Assembly: GCF_013122565.1 (NCBI RefSeq)
Contig: NZ_CP053258.1
Source: Escherichia coli
GTDB lineage: Bacteria; Pseudomonadota; Gammaproteobacteria; Enterobacterales; Enterobacteriaceae
Length of the DNA stretch: 64,000 bases
Strand: one strand, 5' to 3'
In this document: one piece after another, positions 19,815-49,123 of the stretch
How positions within the stretch are numbered: the first letter of the stretch is position 1
Layout of the letters: each line of letters starts with the position of its first letter
Notes under the pieces: generated by a model
Databases searched by the model: none
Told to the model about the DNA's origin: nothing
Seen by the model: the letters and a program-made list of their open reading frames with translations, nothing else
Made by a program: the position numbers and the translations under genes

Positions 19815-20023
19815 TTACCGCTCCTTTTTATCTGCAATGATTATAATAAGGTTTCGTAGCGGCTGATGTATCTAACAATCACAGTTGTGAATGTTAAATA
19901 AAAGATAAAAAAGTGCTTTTTTTGATACCCTGAAATAATAAGATACTAAAAGTACCATTTTTGATACCTTTGCCAGGATATAACGAATAACGAGTTTCAA
20001 CGTTGAAGGAATCATTTACAAAA

Positions 20024-21767: not shown

Positions 21768-22637
<870 letters not shown>

Positions 22638-27224: not shown

Positions 27225-28745
27225 ATGGTCAGCTCAACGACTCCGTCCTCCGGGGAATACTTGTTGGAAATGAGCGGTATCAACAAGTCCTTTCCTGGTG
27301 TTAAGGCACTTGATAACGTTAATTTAAATGTCCGGCCACATTCTATCCATGCATTAATGGGGGAAAACGGCGCAGGAAAATCAACATTATTAAAATGCCT
27401 GTTTGGTATTTATCAAAAAGACTCCGGCACCATTTTATTCCAGGGTAAAGAGATCGATTTCCATTCTGCAAAAGAAGCCCTGGAAAATGGTATTTCGATG
27501 GTACACCAGGAGTTAAACCTGGTATTACAACGTTCGGTGATGGATAACATGTGGCTGGGGCGATATCCCACCAAAGGCATGTTTGTCGATCAGGACAAAA
27601 TGTACCGCGAAACCAAAGCGATTTTTGACGAACTGGATATTGATATCGATCCGCGTGCGCGCGTCGGCACATTATCCGTTTCGCAAATGCAGATGATCGA
27701 AATCGCCAAAGCGTTTTCCTATAACGCGAAAATTGTGATTATGGATGAACCGACTTCTTCGTTAACCGAAAAAGAGGTCAATCATCTGTTCACTATTATT
27801 CGTAAATTAAAAGAGCGCGGCTGCGGTATTGTTTATATCTCGCATAAAATGGAAGAAATCTTCCAGTTATGTGATGAAGTTACCGTATTGCGCGACGGTC
27901 AGTGGATCGCTACCGAACCGTTGGCAGGGCTGACGATGGATAAGATCATCGCCATGATGGTTGGGCGTTCTCTTAACCAGCGTTTCCCTGACAAAGAAAA
28001 CAAGCCGGGCGAAGTCATCCTCGAGGTGCGTAACCTGACGTCACTGCGCCAGCCGTCGATCCGTGATGTCTCGTTTGATCTGCATAAAGGGGAGATCCTC
28101 GGTATTGCCGGTCTGGTGGGGGCGAAACGTACCGATATTGTTGAGACGTTATTTGGTATTCGCGAGAAATCGGCTGGCACCATTACGTTGCACGGCAAAA
28201 AGATCAATAACCATAATGCCAATGAAGCCATAAACCACGGATTTGCTCTGGTAACTGAGGAGCGCCGCTCAACGGGAATTTATGCCTATCTGGATATTGG
28301 TTTTAACTCGTTAATTTCCAATATTCGCAACTACAAAAACAAAGTTGGTTTACTGGATAACTCGCGGATGAAAAGCGATACCCAGTGGGTGATTGATTCG
28401 ATGCGGGTAAAAACGCCGGGGCATCGGACGCAAATTGGTTCGCTCTCAGGTGGTAATCAGCAAAAGGTGATTATTGGGCGCTGGCTACTAACGCAACCGG
28501 AAATATTAATGCTCGATGAACCGACGCGCGGTATTGATGTCGGGGCGAAGTTTGAGATCTATCAGTTAATTGCCGAACTGGCGAAGAAAGGCAAAGGGAT
28601 TATTATTATCTCCTCTGAAATGCCTGAGTTGTTAGGGATAACAGACCGTATTCTGGTCATGAGCAACGGTCTCGTTTCCGGAATTGTCGACACAAAAACA
28701 ACAACGCAAAACGAAATTCTGCGTCTTGCGTCTTTGCACCTTTAA
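27225..28745 (+). CDS. mglA: Galactose/methyl-galactoside ABC transporter ATP-binding protein (duplicated ABC domains)
   Basis: 506-aa ORF with two Walker A motifs (GENGAGKST; GLVGAKRT); matches MglA. Confidence 0.95.
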
Positions 28746-28760
28746 GATTAGGGGCTTCCC

Positions 28761-29771
28761 ATGAGTGCGTTAAATAAGAAAAGTTTTCTTACTTACCTGA
28801 AAGAGGGCGGTATTTACGTCGTTCTTTTAGTTTTGCTGGCGATTATTATTTTCCAGGACCCAACATTTTTAAGTCTGTTGAACTTAAGTAATATTCTCAC
28901 CCAGTCATCGGTGCGTATTATTATCGCGCTCGGTGTGGCAGGGTTAATTGTCACCCAGGGGACCGACCTTTCTGCAGGTCGCCAGGTGGGGCTGGCGGCA
29001 GTAGTAGCGGCGACGTTATTGCAGTCCATGGATAACGCCAACAAAGTGTTCCCGGAAATGGCGACGATGCCGATTGCGCTGGTTATTCTGATTGTCTGTG
29101 CCATTGGTGCGGTGATCGGTTTGATCAACGGTCTGATTATCGCTTATCTCAACGTGACGCCGTTCATTACCACGCTCGGCACGATGATCATCGTCTATGG
29201 CATCAACTCGCTCTATTACGACTTTGTCGGGGCGTCGCCGATTTCTGGTTTCGACAGTGGCTTCTCTACCTTTGCTCAGGGCTTTGTCGCGCTGGGGAGT
29301 TTCCGTCTCTCTTACATCACCTTCTACGCGTTGATTGCGGTGGCGTTCGTCTGGGTGTTGTGGAACAAAACCCGCTTCGGTAAGAACATTTTTGCCATTG
29401 GCGGTAACCCGGAAGCGGCAAAAGTATCTGGTGTCAACGTCGGCCTGAACCTGCTGATGATCTACGCGTTGTCTGGCGTGTTCTATGCCTTTGGCGGGAT
29501 GTTAGAAGCCGGACGTATCGGCTCTGCCACCAACAACCTCGGCTTTATGTATGAGCTGGATGCTATCGCGGCGTGCGTGGTAGGCGGTGTATCGTTCAGC
29601 GGCGGTGTGGGGACGGTGATTGGCGTGGTGACCGGGGTAATTATTTTTACCGTCATCAACTATGGCCTGACGTATATCGGCGTAAACCCATACTGGCAGT
29701 ACATCATCAAAGGGGCGATTATTATCTTCGCCGTAGCGCTGGATTCACTGAAATACGCGCGTAAGAAGTGA
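28761..29771 (+). CDS. mglC: Galactose/methyl-galactoside ABC transporter permease
   Basis: 336-aa membrane ORF matching MglC. Confidence 0.95.
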   Translation: MSALNKKSFLTYLKEGGIYVVLLVLLAIIIFQDPTFLSLLNLSNILTQSSVRIIIALGVAGLIVTQGTDLSAGRQVGLAAVVAATLLQSMDNANKVFPEMATMPIALVILIVCAIGAVIGLINGLIIAYLNVTPFITTLGTMIIVYGINSLYYDFVGASPISGFDSGFSTFAQGFVALGSFRLSYITFYALIAVAFVWVLWNKTRFGKNIFAIGGNPEAAKVSGVNVGLNLLMIYALSGVFYAFGGMLEAGRIGSATNNLGFMYELDAIAACVVGGVSFSGGVGTVIGVVTGVIIFTVINYGLTYIGVNPYWQYIIKGAIIIFAVALDSLKYARKK

Positions 29772-29785
29772 TGTAATTGTGGATA

Positions 29786-29832
29786 TTGCCGGATGCGCTG
29801 CATCCGGCAATCGGTGCCAAATGCCGGATGCG
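29786..29832. repeat. REP element(s) between convergent mglC and preA
   Basis: Perfect palindrome ttgccggatgc-gct-gcatccggcaa, then a second partial gccggatgcg copy. Confidence 0.6.
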
Positions 29833-29841
29833 TCTCTGGTT

Positions 29842-31077
29842 TTACAACGTTACCGGGTGTTCTTTCTCTCCCTTCTTAAACTTCACTTCTCCGAGATCAA
29901 TACAACCCACCGGGCAGACGTGACCACAAAGCAGACAACCCACACATTTCTCGGTATTACAATGCGGTGTGCGGGTTTTCTCGCTCCATTCCATCGCCTG
30001 GTGACCGCCGTCGTAACAGGAAATATAACAGCGTCCACAGCCAACACATTTATCAAGATTGATACGGGGATAGACAATATAACTGCGGTCTAAATCTTCC
30101 GCCGGGACAATATTGTTATTCGCCAGACCTACCATCTCCTGCAACGAATCAAATCCCTGATCGGCGAGATAATGCGATAACCCGCTCGCCATATCTTCTA
30201 CGATGCGATAGCCGTACTGCATAATGCCGGTGGTGACCTGTAACGTTGCTGCGCCGAGCAATAAAAACTCCGCCGCATCCTCCCAGGTTTCAATACCGCC
30301 GATACCGCTGATTGGGAAATCGCGCAGTTCTGGATGGGTGCGCATTTGCTGAATGAAGCGCAGGGCGATCGGTTTTACCGCTTTACCGGAATATCCGGAA
30401 ATACTCGATTTTCCGTTAACGATCGGCATACCGATTTTCTGATTAAGATCGATATTGGTGATGGATTTAACGGTGTTAATCGCCGCAATGCCATCTGCGC
30501 CGCCGCGCTTCGCCGCCAGCGCCACTTCGCACATATCACCGATATTCGGCGTCATCTTCGCCAGCATTGGCAGCGTGGAACCCCGTTTCACTGCCCGACA
30601 ATATTTTTCTACCAGCTCCGGGCTTTGCCCGACATCGCTACCCATCGCATGAGAAGTCATTTGCGGACAGGAGAAGTTGCACTCGATCATATCCGCGCCA
30701 GCTTCTTGCACCAGGCGCGCCAGCTCCTCCCATTGCTGCTCATTTTCCCCCATGATCGAAGCGATCAATACTTTGTCCGGGTAATCTTCCTTCAGCCGAC
30801 GCAGGGCGGCCAGATTCTCTTCCAACGGATGTTCAGCAATCTGCTCCATATTTTTGAAGCCGATAAAACCGGTATCTTCTTTCACCAGATGATCAAAACG
30901 CGGCGAGACTTCGTTGGCGATAAAAAAGCCGATCGTTTTAAACACCACACCGCCCCAACCTGTGTCGTAGGCTTTGGCACACATCTCATAGCAGTTGCCT
31001 ACCGGCGAAGAAGAGAGGCAGAATGGGTTGGGAAACTTCACGCCGCAAAAAGTAATCGAAAGATCTTTCGTTAACAT
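29842..31077 (-). CDS. preA: NAD-dependent dihydropyrimidine dehydrogenase subunit PreA
   Basis: ORF-track 29842..31083; start moved to the second Met (31077) to give 411-aa [19 protein letters not shown]...; C-terminal 4Fe-4S ferredoxin cysteine motifs; matches PreA/YeiA. Confidence 0.9.
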
Positions 31078-32309
31078 GAGCAAGCTCCCTCTAAATAGTG
31101 ATGAATCGCCTCGGCGGCTTCTTTCCCGGTTTTCACGGCATAGACCACGGTTTTGTCACCCTCAACAATATCGCCAGCAGCAAAGACTTGCGGATCGCGG
31201 GTCTGATAATTTTGTGTTTTGATGGTGTTACGCTGCGGCTCTAACTCCGCAAAGGCATCCAGTCTGGCATGCTGACCGACGGCGAGAATAATTTTATCTG
31301 CCACCATCGTCAGTTCGCCCGATAACCGTACATGCTTAAACGTGACTTTATTGCCTTCCACGGCTACTGGCGTGAATCCATCGATGATCGAAACGCCCAG
31401 CTCCCGGGCGCTGGCAAACTCTTTTTCGCTTGCCGGAAACTCATCTAACTCTTCACGCGCTACGCAAGTTACCGCCTGACAGCCGAGAACTTTCAGCGTG
31501 CTGGCTACGTCCATCGCGACATCACCGCCGCCGATAATTAATGCGCTTTGTGGAATGCTGATATCGCCTTGCGCCTGTCGTGCACGTTGCAGGAAGTCGA
31601 CGGCAATCTCAACGTCGCTATGCTCAAACAGCGGTAGCCCGGAACCGCTTGATAACCCCACGGTGACCAGTACCGCGCGGTTTTCCGCTTTCAGTTGCTC
31701 CAGGGTGAGTGTTTTACCGACTTCGTTGTTGCACTTAATGGTCACGCCCATTTTTTCAATACGGGCGATTTCTGCATCCAGCACTGATTGCGGTAACCGA
31801 AATTGCGGAATACCGTTACGCAACCAGCCACCGGGGTGCGCTTCTTTCTCATAAATCGTGACGTCATAACCCTGGTTTGTTAGCGTCACACTGGCCTGCA
31901 ATCCGGCAGGACCTGCGCCAATAATCGCGACTTTGCCGAGCGTTTTAGTACCGGGCTGATAAATTTCCATCCCGGTTTGTTGTTCAAAATCAGTAACAAA
32001 ACGCTGTAAGCGGCCGATATCAATGGGAGCATCAACACCGGCACGGGTACAACCGCTTTGGCATAATTTCTCCGTCGGGCACACTCTGGCACAAACGGCA
32101 CCGAGGGCATTATTTTCGCGAATTGTCTCGGCAGCGCCTTTAAAATTACGAAAGTAGATTGAGCGAATAAATTTCCCCGGATCGGTCTGTGCCGGGCAAG
32201 CCTGACTACAGGGAGCGTCGTGACATAATAAACAGCGAGAGGCTTCTTTAATCGCCAGTAAAGGCGTAAAAGCCGGAGTGAGTTCATCCAGATAATTTTG
32301 TTGCGGCAT
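31071..32309 (-). CDS. preT: NAD-dependent dihydropyrimidine dehydrogenase subunit PreT
   Basis: 412-aa ORF with GAGPAG dinucleotide-binding motif; matches PreT/YeiT; overlaps preA start. Confidence 0.9.
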
Positions 32310-32401
32310 GTGATCTTCCTTAATGCTATGAGTAATTAAGGCGAACGCTAAATAAATATTGCGTGCTGATATTAAGGCTATGCGCGTGGGGAAATTTAAA
32401 C

Positions 32402-32417
32402 TGTGAAAGGATTCACA
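32402..32417 (-). promoter_or_regulatory. Consensus CRP site upstream of preTA
   Basis: TGTGA-aaggat-TCACA, about 90 bp upstream of the preT start. Confidence 0.45.
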
Positions 32418-32502
32418 AATAGCTGCGGTTCAGAATGTTATATCCGCAGCTTATTGAGTGAAGTAATAATTATTCTCAATAATTAACAGAAAAGAGAAAA
32501 TA

Positions 32503-34498
<1,996 letters not shown>

Positions 34499-34554
34499 GG
34501 CGTTGCCTCATAATCATGTAATGGGATAACAGTTTACGAACCCGTTATGGCTTT

Positions 34555-34627
34555 ATATGTGATCTGAATCTCATTAATTATGCAACGCGTGAAACTTACA
34601 TCAAAAATGCGCGACGCATCGCAAATT
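34555..34627 (-). promoter_or_regulatory. cdd promoter region with tandem CRP-like sites (CytR/CRP-regulated)
   Basis: TGTGAtctgaaTCTCA at 34558-34573 and a second CRP-like element tgcgcgacgcatcgcaaa near 34608-34625, in the 129-bp region upstream of cdd. Confidence 0.5.
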
Positions 34628-35754
<1,127 letters not shown>

Positions 35755-35956
35755 TTAATTCGTAAAACGTGCTACCGATCACATTAAGAAATCAGCGCTT
35801 ATTTTTTCGCTCCCCGGTATTACGCAATGAGCAGCGAACTCAGGCATACATCAAGCATAGAGAGGGATTGCAGTTTGCAGCAATCCCTCTTTGCAGACCT
35901 TTAATCCGCTGACCATCGGCGCTAACATAGCGCCTCATTTTTTTGCGGGTGATGAT

Positions 35957-36907
35957 ATGCGTGTGTTACTGGCACCGATGGAGGGAGTGCTTGACTCTCT
36001 GGTGCGTGAATTGCTGACCGAAGTTAACGACTACGATCTGTGCATCACCGAGTTCGTCCGCGTGGTGGATCAACTGCTGCCGGTAAAAGTTTTTCATCGC
36101 ATTTGCCCTGAGCTACAAAACGCCAGCCGGACACCATCCGGTACGCTGGTGCGCGTGCAGTTGTTGGGTCAGTTCCCACAATGGCTGGCAGAGAACGCCT
36201 CCCGTGCGGTGGAATTAGGTTCCTGGGGCGTGGATCTCAATTGCGGCTGCCCGTCGAAAACGGTTAACGGTAGCGGCGGCGGCGCGACGTTACTCAAAGA
36301 TCCTGAACTCATCTACCAGGGTGCAAAAGCGATGCGTGAAGCTGTACCGGCGCATTTGCCCGTCAGCGTGAAAGTGCGTCTGGGCTGGGACAGCGGTGAG
36401 AAGAAATTTGAAATCGCCGATGCGGTTCAACAGGCTGGCGCTACGGAGCTGGTGGTGCATGGGCGGACGAAAGAGCAGGGTTACCGCGCGGAGCATATTG
36501 ACTGGCAGGCGATTGGTGAGATTCGCCAGCGGCTGAATATTCCGGTGATTGCCAACGGTGAAATCTGGGACTGGCAGAGCGCGCAACAATGCATGGCGAT
36601 CAGCGGCTGCGACGCAGTGATGATTGGTCGCGGGGCGCTCAATATTCCCAACCTGAGCCGGGTAGTAAAATATAACGAACCGCGAATGCCGTGGCCGGAG
36701 GTGGTTGCTTTGCTGCAAAAATATACCCGTCTGGAAAAGCAGGGCGATACCGGGTTATATCACGTAGCGCGGATTAAACAGTGGTTGAGTTATTTGCGTA
36801 AAGAATACGCTGAAGCAACAGAATTATTTCAGCATGTTCGGGTGTTGAATAATTCCCCTGATATTGCAAGGGCTATTCAGGCAATTGATATCGATAAGCT
36901 GCGATAA
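35957..36907 (+). CDS. dusC: tRNA-dihydrouridine(16) synthase
   Basis: ORF-track starts at a TTG (35891); ATG at 35957 gives [19 protein letters not shown]... matching DusC. Confidence 0.9.
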
Positions 36908-37294
36908 TAGTGGAATCGCAGCTTATCAGAGACAATGAATCGCTTATTCAGCTTCATCATCTTGTTGCGCTCCTTTCATGAACTAAGCCATATATTGCCA
37001 CTGGCGCAAGGAGCGCGCAGGGGGAGGACAATCGCCTCCTCCCCCTGCACCCCCGGGCTCTGGCGAACAAAATCGCCGCTGCGCGGTACCTTCAGCTTAT
37101 CCCCTTCGGCTACCGGGTCGGGCGCGAGGTAACGTCCTTGTAAGACGCGCCCTCAGCCCACATCCATGTGGGCTGTCCCGGCCTTCGGGGAACGCTTCAG
37201 CGATTTTGACGCCACCAACACCGGAGCTGTTTGCAAATCAAGTACACAAAATATCTAGTTCCTGACCTGACAACTTATATGCCATATCTGATTT

Positions 37295-37378
37295 TTAAAA
37301 TATCATCTTAAATACGCCAGTCACCACCAGTAGCCCAATCAGGAAAATAATCAATACAGCCCAGAGTATAATTTTCAT
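37295..37378 (-). CDS. yohP: Small membrane protein YohP (27 aa)
   Basis: Hand translation of the minus strand: MKIILWAVLIIFLIGLLVVTGVFKMIF*, a single hydrophobic helix; below the ORF-track size cut-off; matches YohP from recall. Confidence 0.75.
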   Translation of the reverse strand: MKIILWAVLIIFLIGLLVVTGVFKMIF

Positions 37379-37601
37379 TGGCGTTCCTTTATTTGTGAGT
37401 GCTGAATAAGTATAGGAAAAAACGAAGCCCTTTGCCGTTATCCATAAACGATTAAGATAAATCGGAAGATATCATTCACTTAGTGTATATTTTTCTGGAT
37501 ATGTCGTTTTATTGCTACTGATGTATTGCCACGCGAAACTAAAAAATATATCGCAACACACGGTAATCTCCCCGCACCTTTTCTTACCTGATTATTCCCC
37601 C

Positions 37602-39038
37602 ATGAATCGTGATTCCTTTTATCCAGCCATCGCCTGTTTTCCGCTGTTACTGATGCTGGCCGGATGTGCGCCTATGCATGAAACCCGCCAGGCGTTAAGC
37701 CAGCAAACGCCCGCTGCACAAGTTGACACCGCATTACCCACGGCGCTGAAAAATGGTTGGCCAGACAGCCAATGGTGGCTGGAGTATCACGATAATCAAC
37801 TCACTTCATTAATTAACAATGCACTACAGAACGCACCGGATATGCAGGTGGCTGAACAGCGCATTCAGCTAGCTGAAGCCCAGGCGAAGGCAGTTGCTAC
37901 TCAGGATGGTCCGCAGATCGACTTTTCTGCGGATATGGAGCGGCAAAAAATGTCGGCAGAAGGGCTAATGGGGCCGTTTGCTCTGAACGATCCGGCCGCA
38001 GGTACGACCGGTCCGTGGTACACCAACGGAACTTTTGGCTTAACGGCGGGCTGGCATCTCGATATCTGGGGAAAGAATCGGGCGGAGGTTACTGCCCGCC
38101 TGGGTACGGTTAAAGCACGGGCGGCGGAACGCGAGCAAACCCGCCAATTGCTGGCTGGCAGCGTAGCCCGCCTGTACTGGGAGTGGCAAACCCAGGCGGC
38201 GTTAAACACGGTCTTGCAGCAAATAGAAAAAGAGCAGAACACCATTATCGCGACCGATCGCCAGCTATATCAGAACGGGATTACTTCTTCAGTTGAAGGT
38301 GTGGAAACCGATATTAATGCCAGCAAAACCCGGCAGCAGCTCAACGATGTCGCGGGGAAAATGAAAATTATTGAGGCACGGTTAAGCGCACTTACAAATC
38401 ACCAGACAAAGTCATTGAAGCTTAAACCGGTCGCGTTGCCGAAAGTGGCAAGCCAGCTTCCTGATGAACTGGGGTACTCCTTACTGGCCCGGCGGGCAGA
38501 TTTGCAGGCGGCGCACTGGTACGTTGAGTCATCGTTAAGCACCATTGATGCGGCGAAAGCGGCATTTTATCCTGACATCAACCTGATGGCCTTCCTGCAA
38601 CAGGATGCGTTGCACTTAAGCGATCTGTTCCGTCATTCCGCGCAGCAAATGGGCGTTACGGCAGGCCTGACGCTACCCATTTTCGATAGTGGTCGTCTTA
38701 ACGCAAACCTCGATATCGCAAAAGCCGAAAGCAACTTGTCTATCGCCAGCTACAACAAAGCAGTGGTTGAAGCGGTGAATGACGTGGCGCGGGCAGCCAG
38801 TCAGGTTCAGACACTGGCGGAGAAAAACCAGCATCAGGCGCAAATTGAGCGCGATGCCTTGCGTGTGGTAGGTCTTGCGCAGGCGCGCTTTAACGCGGGC
38901 ATCATTGCTGGTTCCCGTGTCAGCGAAGCCAGAATCCCGGCGCTGCGTGAGCGGGCCAATGGCCTGTTATTGCAAGGGCAGTGGCTGGATGCCTCCATTC
39001 AACTCACTGGTGCGTTGGGCGGGGGTTACAAACGCTGA
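37602..39038 (+). CDS. mdtQ: Outer-membrane efflux lipoprotein (NodT/OprM family), apparently intact
   Basis: ORF-track 37512..39038 is one continuous frame; ATG at 37602 gives MNRDSFYPAIACFPLLLMLAGC (lipobox LAGC); 478 aa. Confidence 0.8.
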   Translation: MNRDSFYPAIACFPLLLMLAGCAPMHETRQALSQQTPAAQVDTALPTALKNGWPDSQWWLEYHDNQLTSLINNALQNAPDMQVAEQRIQLAEAQAKAVATQDGPQIDFSADMERQKMSAEGLMGPFALNDPAAGTTGPWYTNGTFGLTAGWHLDIWGKNRAEVTARLGTVKARAAEREQTRQLLAGSVARLYWEWQTQAALNTVLQQIEKEQNTIIATDRQLYQNGITSSVEGVETDINASKTRQQLNDVAGKMKIIEARLSALTNHQTKSLKLKPVALPKVASQLPDELGYSLLARRADLQAAHWYVESSLSTIDAAKAAFYPDINLMAFLQQDALHLSDLFRHSAQQMGVTAGLTLPIFDSGRLNANLDIAKAESNLSIASYNKAVVEAVNDVARAASQVQTLAEKNQHQAQIERDALRVVGLAQARFNAGIIAGSRVSEARIPALRERANGLLLQGQWLDASIQLTGALGGGYKR

Positions 39039-39090
39039 TGATATGCGCCTTCTATACTTAACGTTTATTCAGCGTTAAGTGGAGAACTCG

Positions 39091-39852
39091 ATGGCACAGG
39101 TCGCGATTATTACCGCCTCCGATTCGGGGATCGGCAAAGAGTGCGCGTTATTACTGGCGCAGCAGGGGTTTGATATTGGCATTACCTGGCACTCAGATGA
39201 AGAAGGGGCAAAAGATACCGCGCGTGAGGTGGTTAGCCATGGCGTACGTGCGGAGATCGTGCAACTGGATCTCGGCAATCTGCCAGAAGGTGCGCAGGCG
39301 CTGGAGAAACTCATTCAACGGCTGGGGCGTATTGATGTGCTGGTGAATAATGCGGGTGCAATGACCAAAGCGCCGTTTCTTGATATGGCTTTCGATGAGT
39401 GGCGCAAGATTTTTACCGTTGATGTTGATGGTGCATTTTTATGCTCGCAAATTGCTGCCCGTCAGATGGTGAAACAAGGGCAGGGCGGTCGCATCATCAA
39501 CATTACGTCGGTACATGAACATACACCGTTGCCGGATGCCAGCGCCTACACAGCCGCTAAACATGCGCTCGGCGGGTTAACCAAAGCGATGGCGCTGGAG
39601 CTGGTCAGGCATAAGATTTTGGTGAACGCAGTCGCACCTGGGGCGATCGCTACGCCAATGAACGGCATGGATGATAGCGACGTGAAGCCCGACGCGGAGC
39701 CTTCGATTCCTCTGCGGCGTTTTGGCGCAACGCATGAGATTGCCAGCCTGGTGGTGTGGCTTTGTTCGGAGGGCGCAAATTACACCACCGGGCAGTCGTT
39801 GATAGTGGATGGCGGCTTTATGTTGGCGAATCCGCAGTTCAACCCAGAATAG
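39091..39852 (+). CDS. yohF: SDR-family oxidoreductase YohF
   Basis: ORF-track starts at a GTG (39079); ATG at 39091 gives 253-aa MAQVAIITASDSGIGKECAL... (TGxxxGIG motif); matches YohF. Confidence 0.9.
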   Translation: MAQVAIITASDSGIGKECALLLAQQGFDIGITWHSDEEGAKDTAREVVSHGVRAEIVQLDLGNLPEGAQALEKLIQRLGRIDVLVNNAGAMTKAPFLDMAFDEWRKIFTVDVDGAFLCSQIAARQMVKQGQGGRIINITSVHEHTPLPDASAYTAAKHALGGLTKAMALELVRHKILVNAVAPGAIATPMNGMDDSDVKPDAEPSIPLRRFGATHEIASLVVWLCSEGANYTTGQSLIVDGGFMLANPQFNPE

Positions 39853-39893
39853 CGCAGTGAGGTGCGTGGTTATTTCAATGGGGAATATTTTGG

Positions 39894-39957
39894 TAGGCAT
39901 GGTAAGACGCGCCAGCAACGCATCAGGCATGTTGGATGCGGCGCGAGCGCCTTACCC
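39894..39957. repeat. REP-like GC-rich palindromic element between convergent yohF and yohD
   Basis: ggtaagacgcgcc ... ggcgcgagcgccttacc imperfect inverted repeats. Confidence 0.45.
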
Positions 39958-39969
39958 AAGGCAATGGTT

Positions 39970-40548
39970 TTACGCCTGATTATCCGGCTTTTTCTTCCCG
40001 CGCCGTTTCAGCCACCAGCGCACGCCTACCACCAGAACCACGACCAGAATCAACCAGACCCAGTGCTTCAAATGCTGATCGAGATTGTGCAACCACGGCG
40101 CAATCACCTGACCACCAGCGTAACCGATAGTGGTAAAAATCAACGCCCAGGCAAATGCGCCGAGGATATTCAGTGGCAGAAAGATTTTCGGCGGCAGCTG
40201 GCTGGCACCAATCAGCGTCGGGCCAATCACCCTAAAGCCATACATAAAACGCGTACCAATGACAAACAGATACGGATGGCGTTGGATAAGTTTCTGCGCC
40301 CGCTCAATTTTATCCTGATGTTTCGAGAAACGGCGTAACAGCTTGCCGCCAAACCGCCGTCCGCACAGATAGAGCACCTGGTCGCCAATCATGCCGCCAA
40401 GCGCTACAGAAAGTACCACCAGCGGGAACTTTAATAGCTCCTGATGTGCCGCAACGCCTCCCAGCAAAGTCACGGTTTCACCTTCCGCCAGGCTACCGAT
40501 CACCAGCGCGGCATAACCATATTGTGAGATGAGTGTATTGAGATCCAT
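39970..40548 (-). CDS. yohD: DedA-family inner-membrane protein YohD
   Basis: ORF-track 39970..40584; internal ATG at 40548 gives 192-aa MDLNTLISQYGYAALVIGSLAEG... Confidence 0.88.
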   Translation of the reverse strand: MDLNTLISQYGYAALVIGSLAEGETVTLLGGVAAHQELLKFPLVVLSVALGGMIGDQVLYLCGRRFGGKLLRRFSKHQDKIERAQKLIQRHPYLFVIGTRFMYGFRVIGPTLIGASQLPPKIFLPLNILGAFAWALIFTTIGYAGGQVIAPWLHNLDQHLKHWVWLILVVVLVVGVRWWLKRRGKKKPDNQA

Positions 40549-40717
40549 AGGCCAGTCTGTCTCCCTTTGGTTGTCTGTAAGCATACACCCTGTGAATCAT
40601 TCACGCTGAAAAAGGACATACATCAGACGGTGCAAATTACATGGGTGAACAAAAAATAATCACAAGCTGGCTTATACTTGAACTGTCAGGTTCATGAACT
40701 CACAACAAGGGGGCGGT

Positions 40718-41305
40718 ATGAGCCATGTCTGGGGACTGTTTTCTCATCCCGATCGTGAAATGCAGGTGATTAATCGCGAAAACGAAACGATTTCTCACCA
40801 TTACACCCACCACGTTTTGCTGATGGCGGCGATTCCGGTGATTTGCGCCTTCATTGGCACTACACAGATTGGCTGGAATTTTGGCGATGGCACTATCCTG
40901 AAGTTATCCTGGTTTACCGGACTGGCGCTGGCTGTCTTGTTTTACGGCGTTATGCTGGCTGGGGTTGCGGTGATGGGGCGGGTCATCTGGTGGATGGCGC
41001 GTAATTATCCGCAGCGTCCGTCACTTGCGCACTGCATGGTCTTCGCGGGCTACGTTGCAACTCCGCTGTTTTTAAGCGGTCTGGTGGCGCTCTACCCGCT
41101 GGTCTGGTTGTGCGCGCTGGTCGGCACGGTGGCACTGTTTTACACCGGTTACCTGCTTTACCTTGGTATTCCGAGCTTCCTGAATATCAACAAAGAGGAA
41201 GGCCTTAGCTTCTCCAGTTCGACGCTGGCGATTGGCGTGCTGGTGCTGGAAGTGCTTCTCGCCCTAACCGTTATACTATGGGGCTACGGTTATCGTTTGT
41301 TCTAG
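40718..41305 (+). CDS. yohC: Yip1-family inner-membrane protein YohC
   Basis: ORF-track 40694..41305; ATG at 40718 after aagggggcgg gives 195-aa MSHVWGLFSHPDREMQVINREN... Confidence 0.88.
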   Translation: MSHVWGLFSHPDREMQVINRENETISHHYTHHVLLMAAIPVICAFIGTTQIGWNFGDGTILKLSWFTGLALAVLFYGVMLAGVAVMGRVIWWMARNYPQRPSLAHCMVFAGYVATPLFLSGLVALYPLVWLCALVGTVALFYTGYLLYLGIPSFLNINKEEGLSFSSSTLAIGVLVLEVLLALTVILWGYGYRLF

Positions 41306-41478
41306 AAAGTTCTTTTGCGTTGCATTGCTGGCGTAAATGTCAGCAATGCAGCATTTCCTCACGATTCTCCTTTGACGATCGCACTTTTTGCTCGTTATGA
41401 TGGCGTCGCTAGCCTCAGTAAATCCTTACTCCGGCGGTGCGCAACCCGTGCGCGTGAACCACTATCTGAATGCTCATC

Positions 41479-42411
41479 ATGCCGAAATTTCGAGTTTCTT
41501 TATTTAGCCTGGCCCTTATGCTGGCTGTGCCTTTTGCACCGCAGGCCGTTGCGAAAACGGCAGCCGCTACCACCGCTTCACAACCGGAAATTGCCTCCGG
41601 TAGCGCGATGATTGTTGATCTGAATACTAACAAAGTGATCTATTCGAACCACCCGGATCTGGTGCGTCCGATTGCGTCTATCAGCAAATTAATGACCGCG
41701 ATGGTTGTGCTGGATGCACGACTGCCGCTGGATGAAAAACTAAAAGTGGATATCAGCCAGACGCCGGAGATGAAAGGGGTCTATTCGCGCGTACGACTGA
41801 ATAGCGAAATCAGCCGTAAAGATATGCTGTTGCTGGCGCTGATGTCTTCAGAAAACCGCGCGGCGGCAAGCCTTGCGCACCATTATCCCGGTGGTTACAA
41901 AGCCTTTATTAAGGCAATGAATGCGAAAGCGAAATCGCTCGGAATGAACAACACGCGCTTTGTTGAACCTACCGGATTGTCGGTGCATAACGTTTCAACT
42001 GCCCGTGACTTAACCAAACTGCTCATTGCCAGCAAACAATATCCGTTGATCGGTCAGTTAAGTACTACCCGGGAAGATATGGCAACCTTCTCTAACCCGA
42101 CGTATACGCTGCCGTTCCGCAATACTAATCATCTGGTGTATCGCGATAACTGGAATATCCAGCTAACCAAAACCGGCTTTACCAATGCGGCGGGCCATTG
42201 TCTGGTGATGCGTACGGTTATCAATAATAAACCGGTGGCGCTGGTAGTGATGGACGCGTTTGGCAAATATACCCATTTTGCCGATGCCAGCCGCCTGCGT
42301 ACCTGGATTGAAACCGGTAAAGTGATGCCTGTTCCGGCAGCAGCGTTGAGCTATAAAAAACAAAAAGCCGCCCAAATGGCGGCGGCGGGGCAGACGGCAC
42401 AGAACGATTAA
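41479..42411 (+). CDS. pbpG: D-alanyl-D-alanine endopeptidase (PBP7)
   Basis: ATG at 41479 gives 310-aa [25 protein letters not shown]...; SxxK motif SISK; matches PbpG. Confidence 0.92.
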
Positions 42412-42414
42412 GAG

Positions 42415-42595
42415 TAGGCAGGATAAGGCGTTTACGCCGCATCCGGCATTCGGAGCACAATGCCTGATGCGATGTTTGCGCATCTTATCAGGCCTACAAA
42501 CGTGACGCGTCCGTAGGCAGGATAAGGCGTTCACGCCGCATCCGGCATCCGGTGCACGCTGGCTGATAAGATGCTTGCGCATCTTATCAGGACTC
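42415..42595. repeat. BIME/REP cluster between convergent pbpG and dld
   Basis: Two copies of gcaggataaggcgtt(t/c)acgccgcatccggcat plus repeated gcgcatcttatcagg units. Confidence 0.75.
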
Positions 42596-42622
42596 CATCT
42601 GCATCATGGCATCCAGCCGTAT

Positions 42623-44338
42623 TTACTCCACTTCCTGCCAGTTTTTCCGCTTACTGGTTTTACCGATCCCCGGATTCATACTGTTGGTCGGATCGTTCTC
42701 GCGATAAAACTTCTGCAACGTCTCCGGTGCTTTATACAAATGACCGACGTTATGCTCGGCAGGGTATTGTGCGCCGCGCTGCTGTAGCAGTTCCAGCATC
42801 TGTTCTTTCAACGCATGCACATCCACGCCTTTTTTAACGATGTAATCCTGATGGAAGACATAGCACATAAAATGGCCGTAATAGAGCTTGTGCACCAGCT
42901 GGCTGTCGATCTCCGGCGGTAAATGCTCATACCATTCGGTGTCGTTACGCCGCAGAGCGATATCCAGCGCCAGAATGTCTTCGACTTCATCGGAATGCAC
43001 CGCCTGATAACGAATTGCTGCGCCCGCAGCGGCGAAACGGTGTAAAAACGCTTTGCTGCCTTCCTCCGGCGTACAGACAAAGAAATCGCCCTCGGCCTGT
43101 TTGAAATAATCCACCAGCCACGATTTGGCTTCACCAACGCCATCGCCCGCCATTTTTAACAGCAGATGATGCTCGTATTTATCGCGCCAGTTTTTCATGC
43201 GCGGCGGTAAATGGCTGGGGAACAGGTGACCGAATTTTTGCATCGCACGGTCAGTAAAATGCGGACGGAAGAATTTCACTTTCTCCAGCATCGCATCGGT
43301 GCGTCCCTTGAGATTAAAGAAGAACGGCATCTTATCGGTGCCTAACTTATCAATCATCAGGAAGGTGTCTTTGCCGTATTTTTCCGCAATATCGTAGATA
43401 TCCCGGTGCATATATTCCCCGGCAACCGGCAGATTTTCGAAGTTAGCCAGAATATGACGGCGGATTTCGGTCAGCACTTCCGGCTGGTTGGTGCCGATAT
43501 AAAACACCTGCTGATTTTTTTCCGCTTCGAAGGTATCAAGACGTACTGCAAAGACGGCCAGCTTCCCGGCGCAACCAGACGATTCAAATAACCGATCCGG
43601 ATCGGCGTTATAACGTGCGGGCGTGTCGGCTTCAATATCACGAACGCGGTGGACATAGTCATAATCGTGGGCGTGACGACCATCGTGACGCACATCGTCA
43701 TCTTTGATGCGATCGTCATCCAGCTTGCTAAGGATCTGCTCCGGCGTTTCGCCCAGATCAATCCCCAGATGGTTCACCAGCGTCAGTTTGCCATCTTCAT
43801 TTATACGCGCGAATAACGACATTTCGGTATACGCCGGGCCACGTTGCACCAGCGAGCCGCCGGAGTTGTTACAAATACCGCCGATAACCGATGCGCCAAT
43901 GCACGATGAACCAATCACCGAGTGCGGTTCGCGTCCCAGCGGTTTGAGGGCTTTTTCCAGCGAATAGAGCGTGGTGCCCGGATAGGCCAGCACCTGTTCG
44001 CCCTTGCCAAGAACGTGCAGCTTGTCGAGACGCAGGGTGCTGATGATCACGATATCGCGATCATAATCGTTACCGTTTGGCGTCGATCCTTCGGTCAGGC
44101 CTGTATTGGCAGCCTGCATCAGAATAATTTTGTCGGCGGTGACGCAGGCTTTCAGCACCCGCCACAATTCCAGTAGTGAGCCAGGGAAAACGACAGCCAG
44201 CGCGTCGCCCTGACCAGAACGGAAGCCCTTGCGATAGCGGGCCGTTTTTGCGGGATCGGTGAGCAGGTGTGAATGACCGACCAGACGGGCAAGTTCATTC
44301 AAAAAGGCTTTATTATCAGTTGTTGTCATGGAAGACAT
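42623..44338 (-). CDS. dld: FAD-dependent D-lactate dehydrogenase (membrane-associated)
   Basis: ORF-track starts at a GTG (44371); ATG at 44338 gives 571-aa MSSMTTTDNKAFLNELARLVG... matching Dld. Confidence 0.93.
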   Translation of the reverse strand: MSSMTTTDNKAFLNELARLVGHSHLLTDPAKTARYRKGFRSGQGDALAVVFPGSLLELWRVLKACVTADKIILMQAANTGLTEGSTPNGNDYDRDIVIISTLRLDKLHVLGKGEQVLAYPGTTLYSLEKALKPLGREPHSVIGSSCIGASVIGGICNNSGGSLVQRGPAYTEMSLFARINEDGKLTLVNHLGIDLGETPEQILSKLDDDRIKDDDVRHDGRHAHDYDYVHRVRDIEADTPARYNADPDRLFESSGCAGKLAVFAVRLDTFEAEKNQQVFYIGTNQPEVLTEIRRHILANFENLPVAGEYMHRDIYDIAEKYGKDTFLMIDKLGTDKMPFFFNLKGRTDAMLEKVKFFRPHFTDRAMQKFGHLFPSHLPPRMKNWRDKYEHHLLLKMAGDGVGEAKSWLVDYFKQAEGDFFVCTPEEGSKAFLHRFAAAGAAIRYQAVHSDEVEDILALDIALRRNDTEWYEHLPPEIDSQLVHKLYYGHFMCYVFHQDYIVKKGVDVHALKEQMLELLQQRGAQYPAEHNVGHLYKAPETLQKFYRENDPTNSMNPGIGKTSKRKNWQEVE

Positions 44339-44533
44339 TTTCCACTCCTTGTGGTGGCGAAAAAATATCACAAACTAGAATAGCGCCTTGTATGACAATT
44401 CAGCGAGTGAATATTTTGAAAATTCAGACAATAAACTGAGCATTCTTTTTCTCTCTCCATCATGCTTATGGCAAACTACGGTTTTTGCACCATTTTCGCT
44501 GCCACGTCGGGCAACAAAGGAAGAAAAATCCAT

Positions 44534-46831
44534 ATGAAATGGCTATGTTCAGTAGGAATCGCGGTGAGTCTGGCCCTGCAGCCAGCACTGGCGGATGATT
44601 TATTCGGTAACCATCCATTAACGCCTGAAGCGCGGGATGCGTTCGTCACCGAACTGCTTAAGAAAATGACAGTTGATGAGAAAATTGGTCAGCTGCGCTT
44701 AATCAGCGTCGGCCCGGATAACCCGAAAGAGGCGATCCGCGAGATGATCAAAGACGGTCAGGTTGGGGCGATTTTCAATACCGTAACCCGTCAGGATATC
44801 CGCGCCATGCAGGATCAGGTGATGGAATTAAGCCGCCTGAAAATTCCTCTTTTCTTTGCTTACGACGTGCTGCACGGTCAGCGCACGGTGTTCCCGATTA
44901 GCCTCGGTCTGGCCTCGTCTTTTAACCTCGATGCAGTAAAAACGGTCGGACGTGTCTCTGCTTATGAAGCGGCAGATGATGGCCTGAATATGACCTGGGC
45001 ACCGATGGTCGATGTCTCGCGCGATCCGCGCTGGGGACGTGCTTCCGAAGGTTTTGGCGAAGATACGTATCTCACCTCAACAATGGGTAAAACCATGGTG
45101 GAAGCGATGCAGGGTAAAAGCCCGGCAGATCGCTACTCGGTGATGACCAGCGTCAAACACTTTGCCGCATACGGCGCGGTAGAAGGCGGTAAAGAGTACA
45201 ACACCGTCGATATGAGTCCGCAGCGCCTGTTTAATGATTATATGCCGCCGTACAAAGCGGGGCTGGACGCAGGCAGCGGCGCGGTGATGGTGGCGCTGAA
45301 CTCGCTGAACGGCACGCCAGCCACCTCCGATTCCTGGCTGCTGAAAGATGTTCTGCGCGACCAGTGGGGCTTTAAAGGCATCACCGTTTCCGATCACGGT
45401 GCAATCAAAGAGCTGATTAAACATGGCACGGCGGCAGACCCGGAAGATGCGGTGCGCGTGGCGCTGAAATCCGGAATCAACATGAGCATGAGCGACGAGT
45501 ACTACTCGAAGTATCTGCCTGGGTTGATCAAATCTGGCAAAGTGACGATGGCAGAGCTGGACGATGCTGCCCGCCATGTACTGAACGTTAAATATGATAT
45601 GGGGTTGTTTAACGACCCATACAGCCATTTGGGGCCGAAAGAGTCTGACCCGGTGGATACCAATGCCGAAAGCCGCCTGCACCGTAAAGAAGCGCGTGAA
45701 GTGGCGCGTGAAAGCCTGGTGTTGCTGAAAAACCGTCTCGAAACGTTACCGCTGAAAAAATCGGCCACCATTGCGGTGGTTGGGCCACTGGCGGACAGTA
45801 AACGTGACGTGATGGGCAGCTGGTCCGCAGCCGGTGTTGCCGATCAATCCGTGACCGTACTGACCGGGATTAAAAATGCCGTCGGTGAAAACGGTAAAGT
45901 GCGGTACGCCAAAGGGGCGAACGTTACCAGTGACAAAGGCATTATCGATTTCCTGAATCAGTATGAAGAAGCGGTCAAAGTCGATCCGCGCTCGCCGCAA
46001 GAGATGATTGATGAAGCGGTGCAGACTGCGAAACAATCTGATGTGGTGGTGGCTGTGGTCGGTGAAGCACAAGGCATGGCGCACGAGGCCTCCAGCCGTA
46101 CCGATATCACTATTCCGCAAAGCCAACGTGACTTGATTGCGGCGCTGAAAGCCACTGGTAAACCGCTGGTGCTGGTGCTGATGAACGGGCGTCCGCTGGC
46201 GCTGGTGAAAGAAGATCAGCAGGCTGATGCGATTCTGGAAACCTGGTTTGCGGGGACTGAAGGCGGTAATGCAATTGCCGATGTATTGTTTGGCGATTAC
46301 AACCCGTCCGGCAAGCTGCCAATGTCCTTCCCGCGTTCTGTCGGGCAGATCCCGGTGTACTACAGCCATCTGAATACCGGGCGTCCGTATAATGCCGACA
46401 AGCCGAACAAATACACTTCGCGTTATTTTGATGAGGCTAACGGGGCGCTGTATCCGTTCGGCTATGGTCTGAGCTATACCACTTTCACCGTCTCTGATGT
46501 GAAACTTTCTGCGCCGACCATGAAGCGTGACGGTAAAGTAACTGCCAGCGTGCAGGTGACGAACACCGGTAAGCGCGAAGGGGCGACGGTAGTCCAGATG
46601 TACTTGCAGGATGTGACGGCTTCCATGAGCCGTCCAGTGAAGCAGCTGAAAGGCTTTGAGAAAATCACCCTGAAGCCGGGCGAAACTCAGACCGTCAGCT
46701 TCCCGATTGATATCGAGGCGCTGAAGTTCTGGAATCAGCAGATGAAATATGACGCCGAGCCTGGCAAGTTCAATGTCTTTATCGGCACTGATTCCGCACG
46801 CGTTAAGAAAGGCGAGTTTGAGTTGCTGTAA
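44534..46831 (+). CDS. bglX: Periplasmic beta-glucosidase (GH3)
   Basis: ORF-track 44462..46831; ATG at 44534 gives 765-aa protein with signal peptide MKWLCSVGIAVSLALQPALA; matches BglX. Confidence 0.93.
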   Translation: MKWLCSVGIAVSLALQPALADDLFGNHPLTPEARDAFVTELLKKMTVDEKIGQLRLISVGPDNPKEAIREMIKDGQVGAIFNTVTRQDIRAMQDQVMELSRLKIPLFFAYDVLHGQRTVFPISLGLASSFNLDAVKTVGRVSAYEAADDGLNMTWAPMVDVSRDPRWGRASEGFGEDTYLTSTMGKTMVEAMQGKSPADRYSVMTSVKHFAAYGAVEGGKEYNTVDMSPQRLFNDYMPPYKAGLDAGSGAVMVALNSLNGTPATSDSWLLKDVLRDQWGFKGITVSDHGAIKELIKHGTAADPEDAVRVALKSGINMSMSDEYYSKYLPGLIKSGKVTMAELDDAARHVLNVKYDMGLFNDPYSHLGPKESDPVDTNAESRLHRKEAREVARESLVLLKNRLETLPLKKSATIAVVGPLADSKRDVMGSWSAAGVADQSVTVLTGIKNAVGENGKVRYAKGANVTSDKGIIDFLNQYEEAVKVDPRSPQEMIDEAVQTAKQSDVVVAVVGEAQGMAHEASSRTDITIPQSQRDLIAALKATGKPLVLVLMNGRPLALVKEDQQADAILETWFAGTEGGNAIADVLFGDYNPSGKLPMSFPRSVGQIPVYYSHLNTGRPYNADKPNKYTSRYFDEANGALYPFGYGLSYTTFTVSDVKLSAPTMKRDGKVTASVQVTNTGKREGATVVQMYLQDVTASMSRPVKQLKGFEKITLKPGETQTVSFPIDIEALKFWNQQMKYDAEPGKFNVFIGTDSARVKKGEFELL

Positions 46832-46840
46832 TGCTTTAGT

Positions 46841-46900
46841 AAGGGCGCGACGTTTGCGCCCTTTGTAGGCCGGATAAGGCGCTCGCGCCGCATCCGGCAG
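46841..46900 (+). terminator. bglX terminator hairpin followed by a REP unit
   Basis: Stem aagggcgc / gcgccctt with 7-nt loop, then taggccggataaggcgctcgcgccgcatccggcag REP. Confidence 0.6.
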
Positions 46901-47041
46901 GAAACGCCGGACCGAATATGCCTCTTAAGTATTTATCTGATTCTGCAACTGATTCCTTCCGCTCAGGCTAACCCCGCCATTATCAACTATGCTTTTCTCT
47001 TAATTCGCTGAAAACAACAGTAAAAGAATGAGGAAAGCATC

Positions 47042-47959
47042 ATGCCACTCTTAAAGCTCTGGGCAGGTTCACTGGTTATGTTGGCAGCCGTGAGCCTGCC
47101 GCTACAGGCGGCTTCCCCCGTTAAAGTCGGTTCAAAAATCGATACCGAAGGCGCGCTGCTCGGCAACATCATCTTGCAGGTACTCGAAAGCCACGGCGTA
47201 CCGACGGTGAATAAAGTGCAACTCGGAACGACTCCTGTGGTGCGCGGGGCGATTACTTCCGGTGAACTGGATATCTATCCGGAATATACCGGCAATGGCG
47301 CTTTCTTCTTTAAAGATGAAAACGATGCAGCGTGGAAAAATGCCGGGCAGGGCTACGAGAAAGTCAAAAAGCTCGATGCGGAGCACAACAAGTTAATCTG
47401 GCTGACGCCCGCACCTGCGAATAACACCTGGACCATCGCCGTGCGTCAGGATGTGGCAGAGAAAAACAAACTCACTTCGCTTGCTGACCTGAGTCGTTAT
47501 CTGAAAGAGGGCGGAACCTTCAAACTGGCAGCCTCGGCAGAGTTTATCGAACGCGCCGATGCCTTACCCGCGTTTGAAAAAGCCTACGACTTTAAACTCG
47601 ATCAGGATCAGTTACTGTCACTGGCCGGTGGCGACACGGCGGTAACGATTAAAGCCGCTGCCCAGCAAACTTCTGGCGTTAATGCCGCAATGGCTTACGG
47701 CACTGACGGTCCGGTCGCGGCGCTGGGGCTGCAAACCTTAAGCGATCCGCAAGGCGTGCAACCTATCTACGCGCCTGCACCAGTAGTGCGTGAATCGGTG
47801 TTGAAGGAATATCCGCAAATGGCACAGTGGCTACAGCCAGTCTTCGCCAGCCTCGATGCAAAAACATTGCAGCAACTGAATGCCAGCATTGCAGTGGAAG
47901 GACTGGATGCCAAAAAAGTGGCTGCCGACTACCTGAAACAAAAAGGGTGGACGAAGTAA
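47042..47959 (+). CDS. osmF: Glycine betaine ABC transporter periplasmic binding protein
   Basis: 305-aa ORF with signal peptide MPLLKLWAGSLVMLAAVSLPLQAA; matches OsmF/YehZ. Confidence 0.93.
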   Translation: MPLLKLWAGSLVMLAAVSLPLQAASPVKVGSKIDTEGALLGNIILQVLESHGVPTVNKVQLGTTPVVRGAITSGELDIYPEYTGNGAFFFKDENDAAWKNAGQGYEKVKKLDAEHNKLIWLTPAPANNTWTIAVRQDVAEKNKLTSLADLSRYLKEGGTFKLAASAEFIERADALPAFEKAYDFKLDQDQLLSLAGGDTAVTIKAAAQQTSGVNAAMAYGTDGPVAALGLQTLSDPQGVQPIYAPAPVVRESVLKEYPQMAQWLQPVFASLDAKTLQQLNASIAVEGLDAKKVAADYLKQKGWTK

Positions 47960-47965
47960 TTTCCC

Positions 47966-49123
47966 GTGACTTATCTACGTATTAATCCTGTTCTGGCGCT
48001 GCTGCTGTTGCTGACGGCAATCGCAGCGGCGCTGCCGTTTATCAGTTACGCGCCTAATCGTTTAGTCTCGGGTGAAGGGCGACATCTCTGGCAGCTGTGG
48101 CCGCAAACGATCTGGATGCTGGTGGGCTTTGGTTGCGCCTGGCTGACAGCCTGTTTTATTCCCGCTAAAAAAGGCAGCATTTTTGCACTCATTCTGGCGC
48201 AATTCGTCTTCGTATTGCTGGTGTGGGGAGCTGGAAAGGCGGCGACCCAACTGGCGCAAAATGGCAGTTCGCTGGCGCGTACCAGCCTCGGCAGTGGTTT
48301 CTGGCTGGCTGCCGCGCTGGCATTGCTGGCCTGTAGCGATGCCATCCGCCGAATCTCCACGCATCCGCTGTGGCGCTGGTTGTTGCATATGCAGATTGCC
48401 ATTATTCCGCTGTGGTTGCTGTACTCCGGCATGCTTAACGATCTCTCACTAATGAAAGAATACGCCAACCGTCAGGATGTGTTTGACGACGCGCTGGCAC
48501 AACATCTGACGTTGCTGTTTGGTGCGGTGCTGCCTGCGTTAGTGATTGGTGTGCCGTTGGGCATCTGGTGCTACTTTTCCACTGCGCGGCAGGGGGCAAT
48601 TTTTTCTCTGTTCAATGTCATTCAGACCGTGCCTTCGGTAGCGCTTTTTGGCCTGTTGATTGCGCCGCTTGCCGCGCTGGTTACGGCCTTTCCGTGGCTG
48701 GGGAAGCTCGGCATAGCAGGAACCGGAATGACACCCGCACTGATTGCGCTGGTGCTCTATGCCTTGCTGCCGCTGGTGCGCGGCGTGGTAGTCGGTTTGA
48801 ACCAGATCCCGCGCGATGTGCTGGAGAGCGCCAGAGCGATGGGCATGAGCGGGGCGCAGCGATTCCTGCATGTTCAGTTACCACTGGCGTTACCGGTATT
48901 TCTGCGCAGCCTGCGGGTGGTGATGGTGCAAACTGTAGGTATGGCGGTGATTGCGGCGTTAATCGGCGCAGGCGGTTTTGGTGCGCTGGTTTTCCAGGGG
49001 CTGCTAAGCAGCGCCATTGATTTAGTGTTGCTGGGGGTGATCCCGGTAATTGTTCTGGCGGTGCTTACCGACGCGCTGTTCGATTTGCTTATCGCACTGC
49101 TGAAGGTGAAACGTAATGATTGA
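47966..49123 (+). CDS. yehY: Glycine betaine ABC transporter permease
   Basis: 385-aa membrane ORF (GTG start at 47966) matching YehY. Confidence 0.88.

Follow-up and report, generated by a model that had tools for sequence, protein, structure and literature searches.

Escherichia coli has four genes for outer membrane factors (OMFs): tolC, cusC, mdtP and mdtQ. Such genes need not share an operon with a pump, and tolC is also unlinked. VceC of Vibrio cholerae is the OMF of the MFS-type pump VceAB, and it is encoded together with that pump (VceCAB). For OprM, CusC, CmeC, MtrE and TolC, which are 12-23% identical to MdtQ, the pump partners are defined, whereas none is defined for MdtQ. OprM and CusC have an N-terminal lipid anchor, as is predicted for MdtQ.

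The closest paralogous family is that of MdtP (YjcP), the OMF of the mdtNOP operon, which belongs to the same NodT lipoprotein branch. In MdtP-like relatives, the OMF gene comes immediately after a FUSC-family (MdtO-like) pump gene. In contrast, no pump gene adjoins mdtQ, which is instead paired with a gene of the SDR family.

In K-12, mdtQ is a pseudogene, presumably b2139, which was originally split as yohG/yohH. [quoted passage not shown] Null mutants are given as slightly more susceptible to puromycin, acriflavine and tetraphenylarsonium in two publications, which attribute these data to the Sulavik 2001 mutants (PMC11762307, PMC9241588). No other phenotype of MdtQ has been reported.

Here we describe mdtQ in a stretch of 64,000 nucleotides of E. 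coli DNA (contig NZ_CP053258.1), called the window below. The original prediction, made from the letters of the window, was that the gene is intact here and a disrupted pseudogene in K-12, and that it probably makes a functional orphan channel. The window gene is very probably an ordinary, ancestral and intact allele of mdtQ, from which the K-12 gene differs by one lost A. As a finding this is already known: the core gene is on record in its wild-type form, and so is the pseudogene that is specific to the K-12 lineage.

Reading frame and protein

The gene is open for 1437 nucleotides from ATG to TGA, with no internal stop or frameshift in either the list of open reading frames or the raw sequence. 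Both therefore confirm the predicted single frame of 478 codons, which begins with a signal peptide and the lipobox LAGC, and so does the profile alignment, which runs from residue 1 to residue 478. Table 1 lists the features of the locus, together with the lesions that were found in other strains.

Table 1 Features of the mdtQ locus in window coordinates, and mdtQ lesions in other strains.
Feature	Position	Strand	Details
dusC	35891-36907	+	
yohP	37295-37378	-	27-aa small membrane protein, divergent from mdtQ; NCBIfam NF011345 YohP equivalog, 67.3 bits (cutoff 58)
yohP-mdtQ divergent intergenic region	37379-37601		223 nt; presumably holds both promoters
mdtQ (formerly yohG) CDS	37602-39038	+	Intact, 478 codons + TGA; NodT/OprM-type outer membrane factor lipoprotein
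Signal peptide and lipobox	37602-37667	+	Codons 1-22; L19-A20-G21-C22; read directly from the sequence
A5 homopolymer, site of the K-12 lesion	37749-37753	+	Gene nt 148-152, codons K50-N51; from pairwise alignment
yohF	39091-39852	+	SDR-family oxidoreductase; NF009384 equivalog, 487.3 bits; 52 nt 3' of mdtQ
yohD, yohC, pbpG	Beyond yohF	- (yohD)	E. coli min-48 region
Lesion in K-12	A5 run		delA
Lesion in PigCaeca_1	G-run, codon 123		delG; could be a homopolymer sequencing error
Lesion in FDAARGOS_1252	Codon 53		W53* (TGG>TGA); allele common to only 4 genomes
Lesion in strain 129130	38193		Q198* (CAG>TAG); yohF frameshifted too

The protein starts with MNRDSFYPAIACFPLLLMLAGCAP, which contains the lipobox; the codon for Cys22 is TGT, at 37665-37667. 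Read as MNRDSFYPAIACFPLLLMLAGC-APMH, the N-terminus has a hydrophobic core and one basic residue, followed by the LAGC motif. The residue at +2 after Cys22 is Ala, not Asp. Under the Lol-sorting rule, this Ala is consistent with outer-membrane localisation of MdtQ. Residues 1-30 are invariant across the E. coli alleles compared (10/10). An alignment of 113 full-length homologs, with identities of 25-59%, has six invariant residues. C22 is among them, and LxGC is retained in the consensus.

Taken mechanically, the open reading frame reaches further upstream, to a TTG at 37512, for a protein of 508 amino acids. This start is used in some GenBank entries. It was rejected in favour of the ATG at 37602, because the geometry of signal peptide and lipobox works only from the ATG; the MdtQ equivalog also aligns its residue 1 from there. 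Another cysteine, C12 in A-I-A-C, was rejected as the lipobox cysteine: it is too near the N-terminus, the residue at -3 is wrong, and C22 is the invariant one.

The NCBIfam equivalog model for MdtQ (NF008524) scores 1025.6 bits, where the cutoff is 650, and aligns to 1-478 of the 478 residues. TIGR01845 (outer_NodT) scores 274.1 bits (cutoff 210.05), with residues 16-475 of the protein aligned to 4-460 of the 460 positions of the model. Pfam PF02321 (OEP) scores 106.6 bits and covers two tandem stretches. The next-best family is MdtP at 356 bits, which is below the MdtP equivalog cutoff of 597. A scan of 1.84 billion cluster representatives returned 15,474 relatives at E<=1e-3. Sequence matches in the PDB are full-length, of which the best is VceC (1yc9, E 1.5e-39, residues 51-477), followed by OprM, SilC, CmeC and CusC.

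An AlphaFold2 model of the monomer was built on the alignment of 113 homologs. It has a mean pLDDT of 90.6 and a pTM of 0.87. The model contains four beta-strands (105-116, 139-153, 325-336 and 348-357), and its helices pair into two long hairpins (158-224/230-265 and 365-431/437-471). As modelled, the protomer has the canonical OMF layout, which consists of four strands, long antiparallel helical hairpins and an equatorial domain. All 44 Foldseek matches to the PDB at E<=0.001 are OMF channels: CmeC, VceC, CusC, OprN, SilC, OprJ, OprM, TOprJ1 and MtrE, and then TolC and ST50. The best TM-scores are 0.75-0.89.

Among solved relatives, VceC is the nearest by sequence and ranks second in the fold comparison (TM 0.75/0.87, rmsd 3.8 A, 26% identity). 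It comes from another genus than the host of MdtQ, and is only about 26% identical to it. The lipoprotein OMFs OprM, CusC, CmeC and MtrE share the fold over its full length, with a TM of 0.73-0.79. TolC reaches 0.63-0.70, and has no lipobox, whereas MdtQ does. The two profile models, the OEP repeats and the PDB and Foldseek matches all support the prediction of an OprM/NodT-family channel, and by its sequence MdtQ falls within the NodT/OprM lipoprotein branch of the OMFs.

How such a protein might work can be proposed from the solved OMFs (OprM, VceC, CusC and TolC). Cys22 would be lipidated, after which MdtQ would be sorted to the outer membrane in a Lol-dependent way. Three protomers would then form a 12-stranded barrel in the outer membrane and a helical tunnel in the periplasm. 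By the same analogy, this tunnel would dock on an adaptor in the periplasm and a pump in the inner membrane, and would be the exit duct for the exported substrates.

Intact and broken alleles

In RefSeq, the mdtQ gene of K-12 MG1655 measures 1436 nucleotides and is marked as pseudo, 'frameshifted'. Pairwise alignment with K-12, which had been proposed as a check, located the lesion: the A5 run at 37749-37753 of the window is A4 in K-12. With one A lost, the frame shifts after K50, and a stop follows at codon 70. The flag and the deletion of a single nucleotide bear out that K-12 mdtQ is a disrupted pseudogene. Neither of the two outcomes that would have overturned the prediction was seen in the alignment or the raw sequence, these being a K-12 gene of the same intact length and an overlooked frameshift within the window gene.

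A global alignment of the K-12 and window genes contains 17 substitutions and a single gap, at an identity of 98.7%. Only one of the 17 substitutions is non-synonymous (H267N). Beyond the lesion, the K-12 gene stays open in the +2 frame with no second lesion, and the protein it would encode differs only at H267N. This means that the lesion is young. In the upstream region, 2 of the 232 aligned positions differ between K-12 and the window. The loss of the A is recent, and restricted to the K-12 lineage.

The mdtQ region is found at a coverage of 80% or more in 5,407 of 5,426 complete E. coli genomes. An 80-nucleotide probe for the A4 allele of K-12 has an exact match in 355 of 5,411 complete genomes, and all 60 of the matches listed are K-12 or other laboratory or engineered strains. 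Carriers among the matches listed include MG1655, DH5alpha, C600, J53, DH1, RR1 and NCM3722. BW25113 and HB101 likewise have an mdtQ match that is one nucleotide shorter. The 81-mer that spans the A5 of the window is found exactly in 3,054 genomes, including BL21(DE3), O157:H7, O26:H11 and NCTC86. The run was also compared across 22 alleles: only K-12 has A4, and every non-K-12 allele has A5.

RefSeq calls mdtQ intact in 16 of 17 non-K-12 genomes. These 17 are from an evenly spaced sample, picked irrespective of length or identity; BL21 and PE164 were inspected besides. The gene is annotated as intact in O157:H7 (Q8X659, WP_001078131), BL21(DE3) (WP_001078139) and ST131 (WP_001078132). Their proteins have 478 amino acids, of which 1-2 differ from the window protein, and the genes are at the same locus as in the window (dusC-yohP-mdtQ-yohF-yohD). 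At least 957 contigs encode exactly the 478-residue protein of the window, which is deposited under the name 'MdtQ [Escherichia coli] / MULTISPECIES [Escherichia]'. Its 90%-identity cluster has 11,156 members, including E. albertii.

The census of A4 and A5 alleles, the neutral sample and the deposited proteins all make an intact gene the norm. Judged from these genomes, mdtQ was ancestrally intact in E. coli and is so in the majority of strains, with the K-12 lineage as an exception. The original framing was therefore right in that the window is intact and K-12 is broken, but it had the wrong one of the two as unusual: K-12 is the outlier.

Broken alleles do occur outside K-12. Among the 22 alleles inspected there are four independent lesions, that of K-12 included (Table 1). 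Independent truncations have also been described in Salmonella Typhi and Paratyphi A (PMC9241588). Such repeated, independent losses mean that the gene is dispensable in some niches.

Selection and upstream sequence

Between the window gene and nine other alleles, the Nei-Gojobori dN/dS is 0.02-0.08, at a dS of 0.033-0.098. The mean over the 45 pairs that can be formed from these 10 alleles is 0.075. Of the polymorphic codons, 62 vary only synonymously, and 23 include an amino-acid change. The alleles were picked by DNA search, and loci that had been selected for an identical protein were set aside as biased. A dN/dS in this range indicates purifying selection, and the codon comparisons show it to be strong across E. 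coli.

The intergenic region that separates mdtQ from the divergent yohP was aligned over 6 lineages. In this alignment 226 of 232 columns are invariant, and mean column identity is 99%. The region is more conserved than synonymous sites are, which suggests that it may be constrained regulatory sequence, common to both divergent genes.

The 20 nucleotides 5' of the mdtQ ATG (...cttacctgattattccccc ATG) contain no Shine-Dalgarno core. A promoter scan of 36850-39950 gave 2 sites, against 3.1 +/- 1.9 expected from shuffled sequence, so nothing above chance. Over the same range, counts for promoters and terminators were all at or below the shuffled expectation. The promoters of mdtQ are described as lacking experimental confirmation (PMC11762307).

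Neighbourhood

The order dusC - yohP(-) - mdtQ - yohF - yohD(-) is conserved, as found with HMMs on the window and by synteny with K-12, 6EVA, PE164 and BL21. The genes from dusC to pbpG in Table 1 are all those of the E. coli min-48 region. yohP is annotated at the same position in each inspected genome that covers the site. The scan of 36850-39950 found no terminator-like site between mdtQ and yohF.

The pairing with yohF can be followed some way out. P0016, which is 60% identical and scores 711.9 bits, is the nearest representative of a 50%-identity cluster that still passes the MdtQ cutoff. It is followed after 48 nucleotides by a gene whose product shares 73% identity with YohF over its first 52 residues, as seen on one 2.3-kb contig. 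An MdtP-like relative is preceded by a FUSC-family gene, like mdtO. It is a reasonable hypothesis that mdtQ and yohF form a conserved and likely co-transcribed unit.

The part of the window that is syntenic with PE164 (about 9.8-62 kb) contains no gene for an adaptor or an efflux pump. None was found among the genes next to mdtQ either, or in the insert between cirA and yeiG, where the additional genes have metabolic roles not related to efflux. This agrees with the orphan channel that was predicted. It also means that no tripartite assembly can be named for MdtQ from its syntenic neighbourhood.

Interpretation

MdtQ of the window is probably functional, given that the gene is intact and under purifying selection, and that its predicted fold is both confident and canonical. 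One could object that the difference with K-12 is a sequencing error, either in the window or in the K-12 reference. The lesion is indeed in a homopolymer, which is a classic site for errors, and the missing G of PigCaeca_1 could be just such an error. For the A-run this is practically impossible, and the genome census refutes it: A4 is present in 355 complete genomes, those listed having been sequenced on many platforms, while A5 is present in each non-K-12 allele inspected and the identical 81-mer in 3,054 genomes. An intact gene may also be a cryptic one, too weakly transcribed or translated to yield a physiologically relevant channel, in which case its loss would have been costless in K-12-like lineages. 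The missing Shine-Dalgarno motif fits this, as do the promoter-like sites that do not exceed shuffled expectation, the unconfirmed promoters (PMC11762307), and a gene that has four independent lesions in 22 alleles and recurrent truncation in Salmonella Typhi and Paratyphi A. We consider it unlikely all the same. A dN/dS of 0.02-0.08, at a dS of up to 0.098, is the signature of a protein that is translated and selected. Conservation in the intergenic region upstream exceeds that of synonymous sites, the identical protein is present on at least 957 contigs, and even the K-12 pseudogene, whose decay is recent, has not gained another lesion.

A functional MdtQ need not be a drug channel. Its substrate could be a metabolite, endogenous or from the diet, that is linked to YohF, with mdtQ-yohF as one unit, and 'multidrug resistance' would then be a misnomer that came from weak K-12 knockout phenotypes. 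The two genes are on the same strand, 52 nucleotides apart and with no terminator-like site in between; the pairing is kept, with a 48-nucleotide gap, beside the 60%-identical ortholog; and in strain 129130 both are pseudogenes. The Sulavik 2001 mutants are reportedly in a K-12 background. If that is where the phenotype comes from, the frameshift was present before the gene was knocked out, and the phenotype cannot count as evidence for channel activity of MdtQ. Polar effects on yohF or yohP, or noise, would then be likelier causes than MdtQ activity. Still, the distant synteny consists of a single 2.3-kb contig, adjacency is no proof of a shared function, and in FDAARGOS_1252 and PigCaeca_1 mdtQ is broken while yohF has no pseudogene flag. 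We rate this reading as rather improbable. A broader proposal, that MdtQ of wild-type E. coli is a working second exit duct, is equally speculative, and we give it a low probability. This duct could serve pumps that are thought to depend strictly on TolC, pumps that have no assigned duct, or the metabolite tied to YohF. Should it be true, then TolC-centred models and the phenotypes of tolC knockouts would not be fully transferable from K-12 to clinical and commensal strains.

Usage notes

As a discovery, an intact mdtQ matters little, as it is the norm of the species and has been deposited thousands of times. What it does affect is the use of K-12 as a reference. K-12 is a natural mdtQ null, and yet it has been the host of almost all E. 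coli efflux genetics. Because K-12 is itself a natural mutant, studies of efflux or of the outer membrane in K-12 cannot reveal the role of MdtQ.

When annotation is carried over from K-12 to other strains, the pseudogene label of mdtQ should not go with it. Purifying selection on MdtQ is strong, whereas its loss is sporadic and independent. Together with the conserved pairing with yohF, this makes MdtQ a reasonable, if modest, target for functional work outside K-12.

Compared with complete E. coli genomes, the window differs by about 1% or more from each of them, and almost all of these differences are synonymous. The highest DNA identity to a complete genome is 99.2% for the gene region, and 98.6% when 20 kb are compared. 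Among 8 assemblies with an identical MdtQ protein, none has a DNA identity above 98.4%.

Repeat orientation at the mdtQ locus

The spacer between dusC (also known as yohI) and yohP holds a repeat element of about 272 bp, in the opposite orientation to that of K-12, where the counterpart aligns on the minus strand at 88% identity. Other E. coli genomes differ in this respect: PE164 has the orientation of the window, while 6EVA has that of K-12. The element sits at the published position of the TRIP1c repeat, which is 43 bp past the yohI/dusC stop and 363 bp ahead of the start of yohG/mdtQ (PMC10888264). Both orientations of TRIP1c are on record, and the repeat mediates rearrangements of the chromosome (PMC10888264). 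The boundary of the inversion alters the C-terminus of the dusC product, which reads ...DIDKLR* in the window versus ...DIEKL* in K-12.

In three assemblies that encode the identical MdtQ protein (L005, L006 and L010), dusC is replaced by unrelated genes directly upstream of yohP, and in one of these IS1 and transposase fragments are close by. These replacements are consistent with the TRIP1c rearrangements reported in PMC10888264.

The divergent intergenic region between yohP and mdtQ is nearly invariant, with 226 of 232 aligned columns identical across lineages that differ at up to 9% of synonymous sites in their coding regions. This near-invariance suggests dense regulatory constraint. No Shine-Dalgarno motif was found ahead of mdtQ.

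Distance from sequenced genomes

Over the 20 kb from 28000 to 48000, none of 5,426 complete E. coli genomes exceeds 98.6% identity to the window; for the mdtQ region, the best identity in this set is 99.2%. Eight assemblies with an identical MdtQ protein likewise have flanks that are just 98.1-98.3% identical. The source lineage of the window is poorly represented or mosaic.

Gene content and annotated pseudogenes

Positions of the features discussed, in window coordinates
Feature	Position	Strand
cirA	15534-17513	
cirA-yeiG insert	17572-21376	
UhpC/PgtP-like organophosphate MFS transporter	17572-18894	-
SerB-type phosphoserine phosphatase	18927-19814	-
L-serine ammonia-lyase	20003-21376	+
yeiG	21768-22604	
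Repeat element, dusC-yohP spacer	36947-37218	
yohP-mdtQ intergenic region	37379-37601	

The insert of about 4 kb between cirA and yeiG, which is missing from PE164, carries the transporter, phosphatase and ammonia-lyase genes of the table and looks like a small island for the uptake and catabolism of phosphoserine or serine.

In some E. coli (L002, L004, L008 and L011), an aromatic-catabolism island of about 6 kb separates yohJ from dusC, immediately upstream of the mdtQ locus; neither the window nor K-12 has this island. It encodes a LysR regulator, an MFS transporter, a cupin dioxygenase, an FAA-hydrolase family protein, maleylacetoacetate isomerase and 3-hydroxybenzoate 6-monooxygenase.

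In strain 129130 (NZ_CP158333.1, 1791757-1793593), mdtQ and the adjoining yohF are both annotated as pseudogenes, the former through Q198* (CAG>TAG) and the latter through a frameshift. The two genes could have decayed together, or the assembly may be of low quality.
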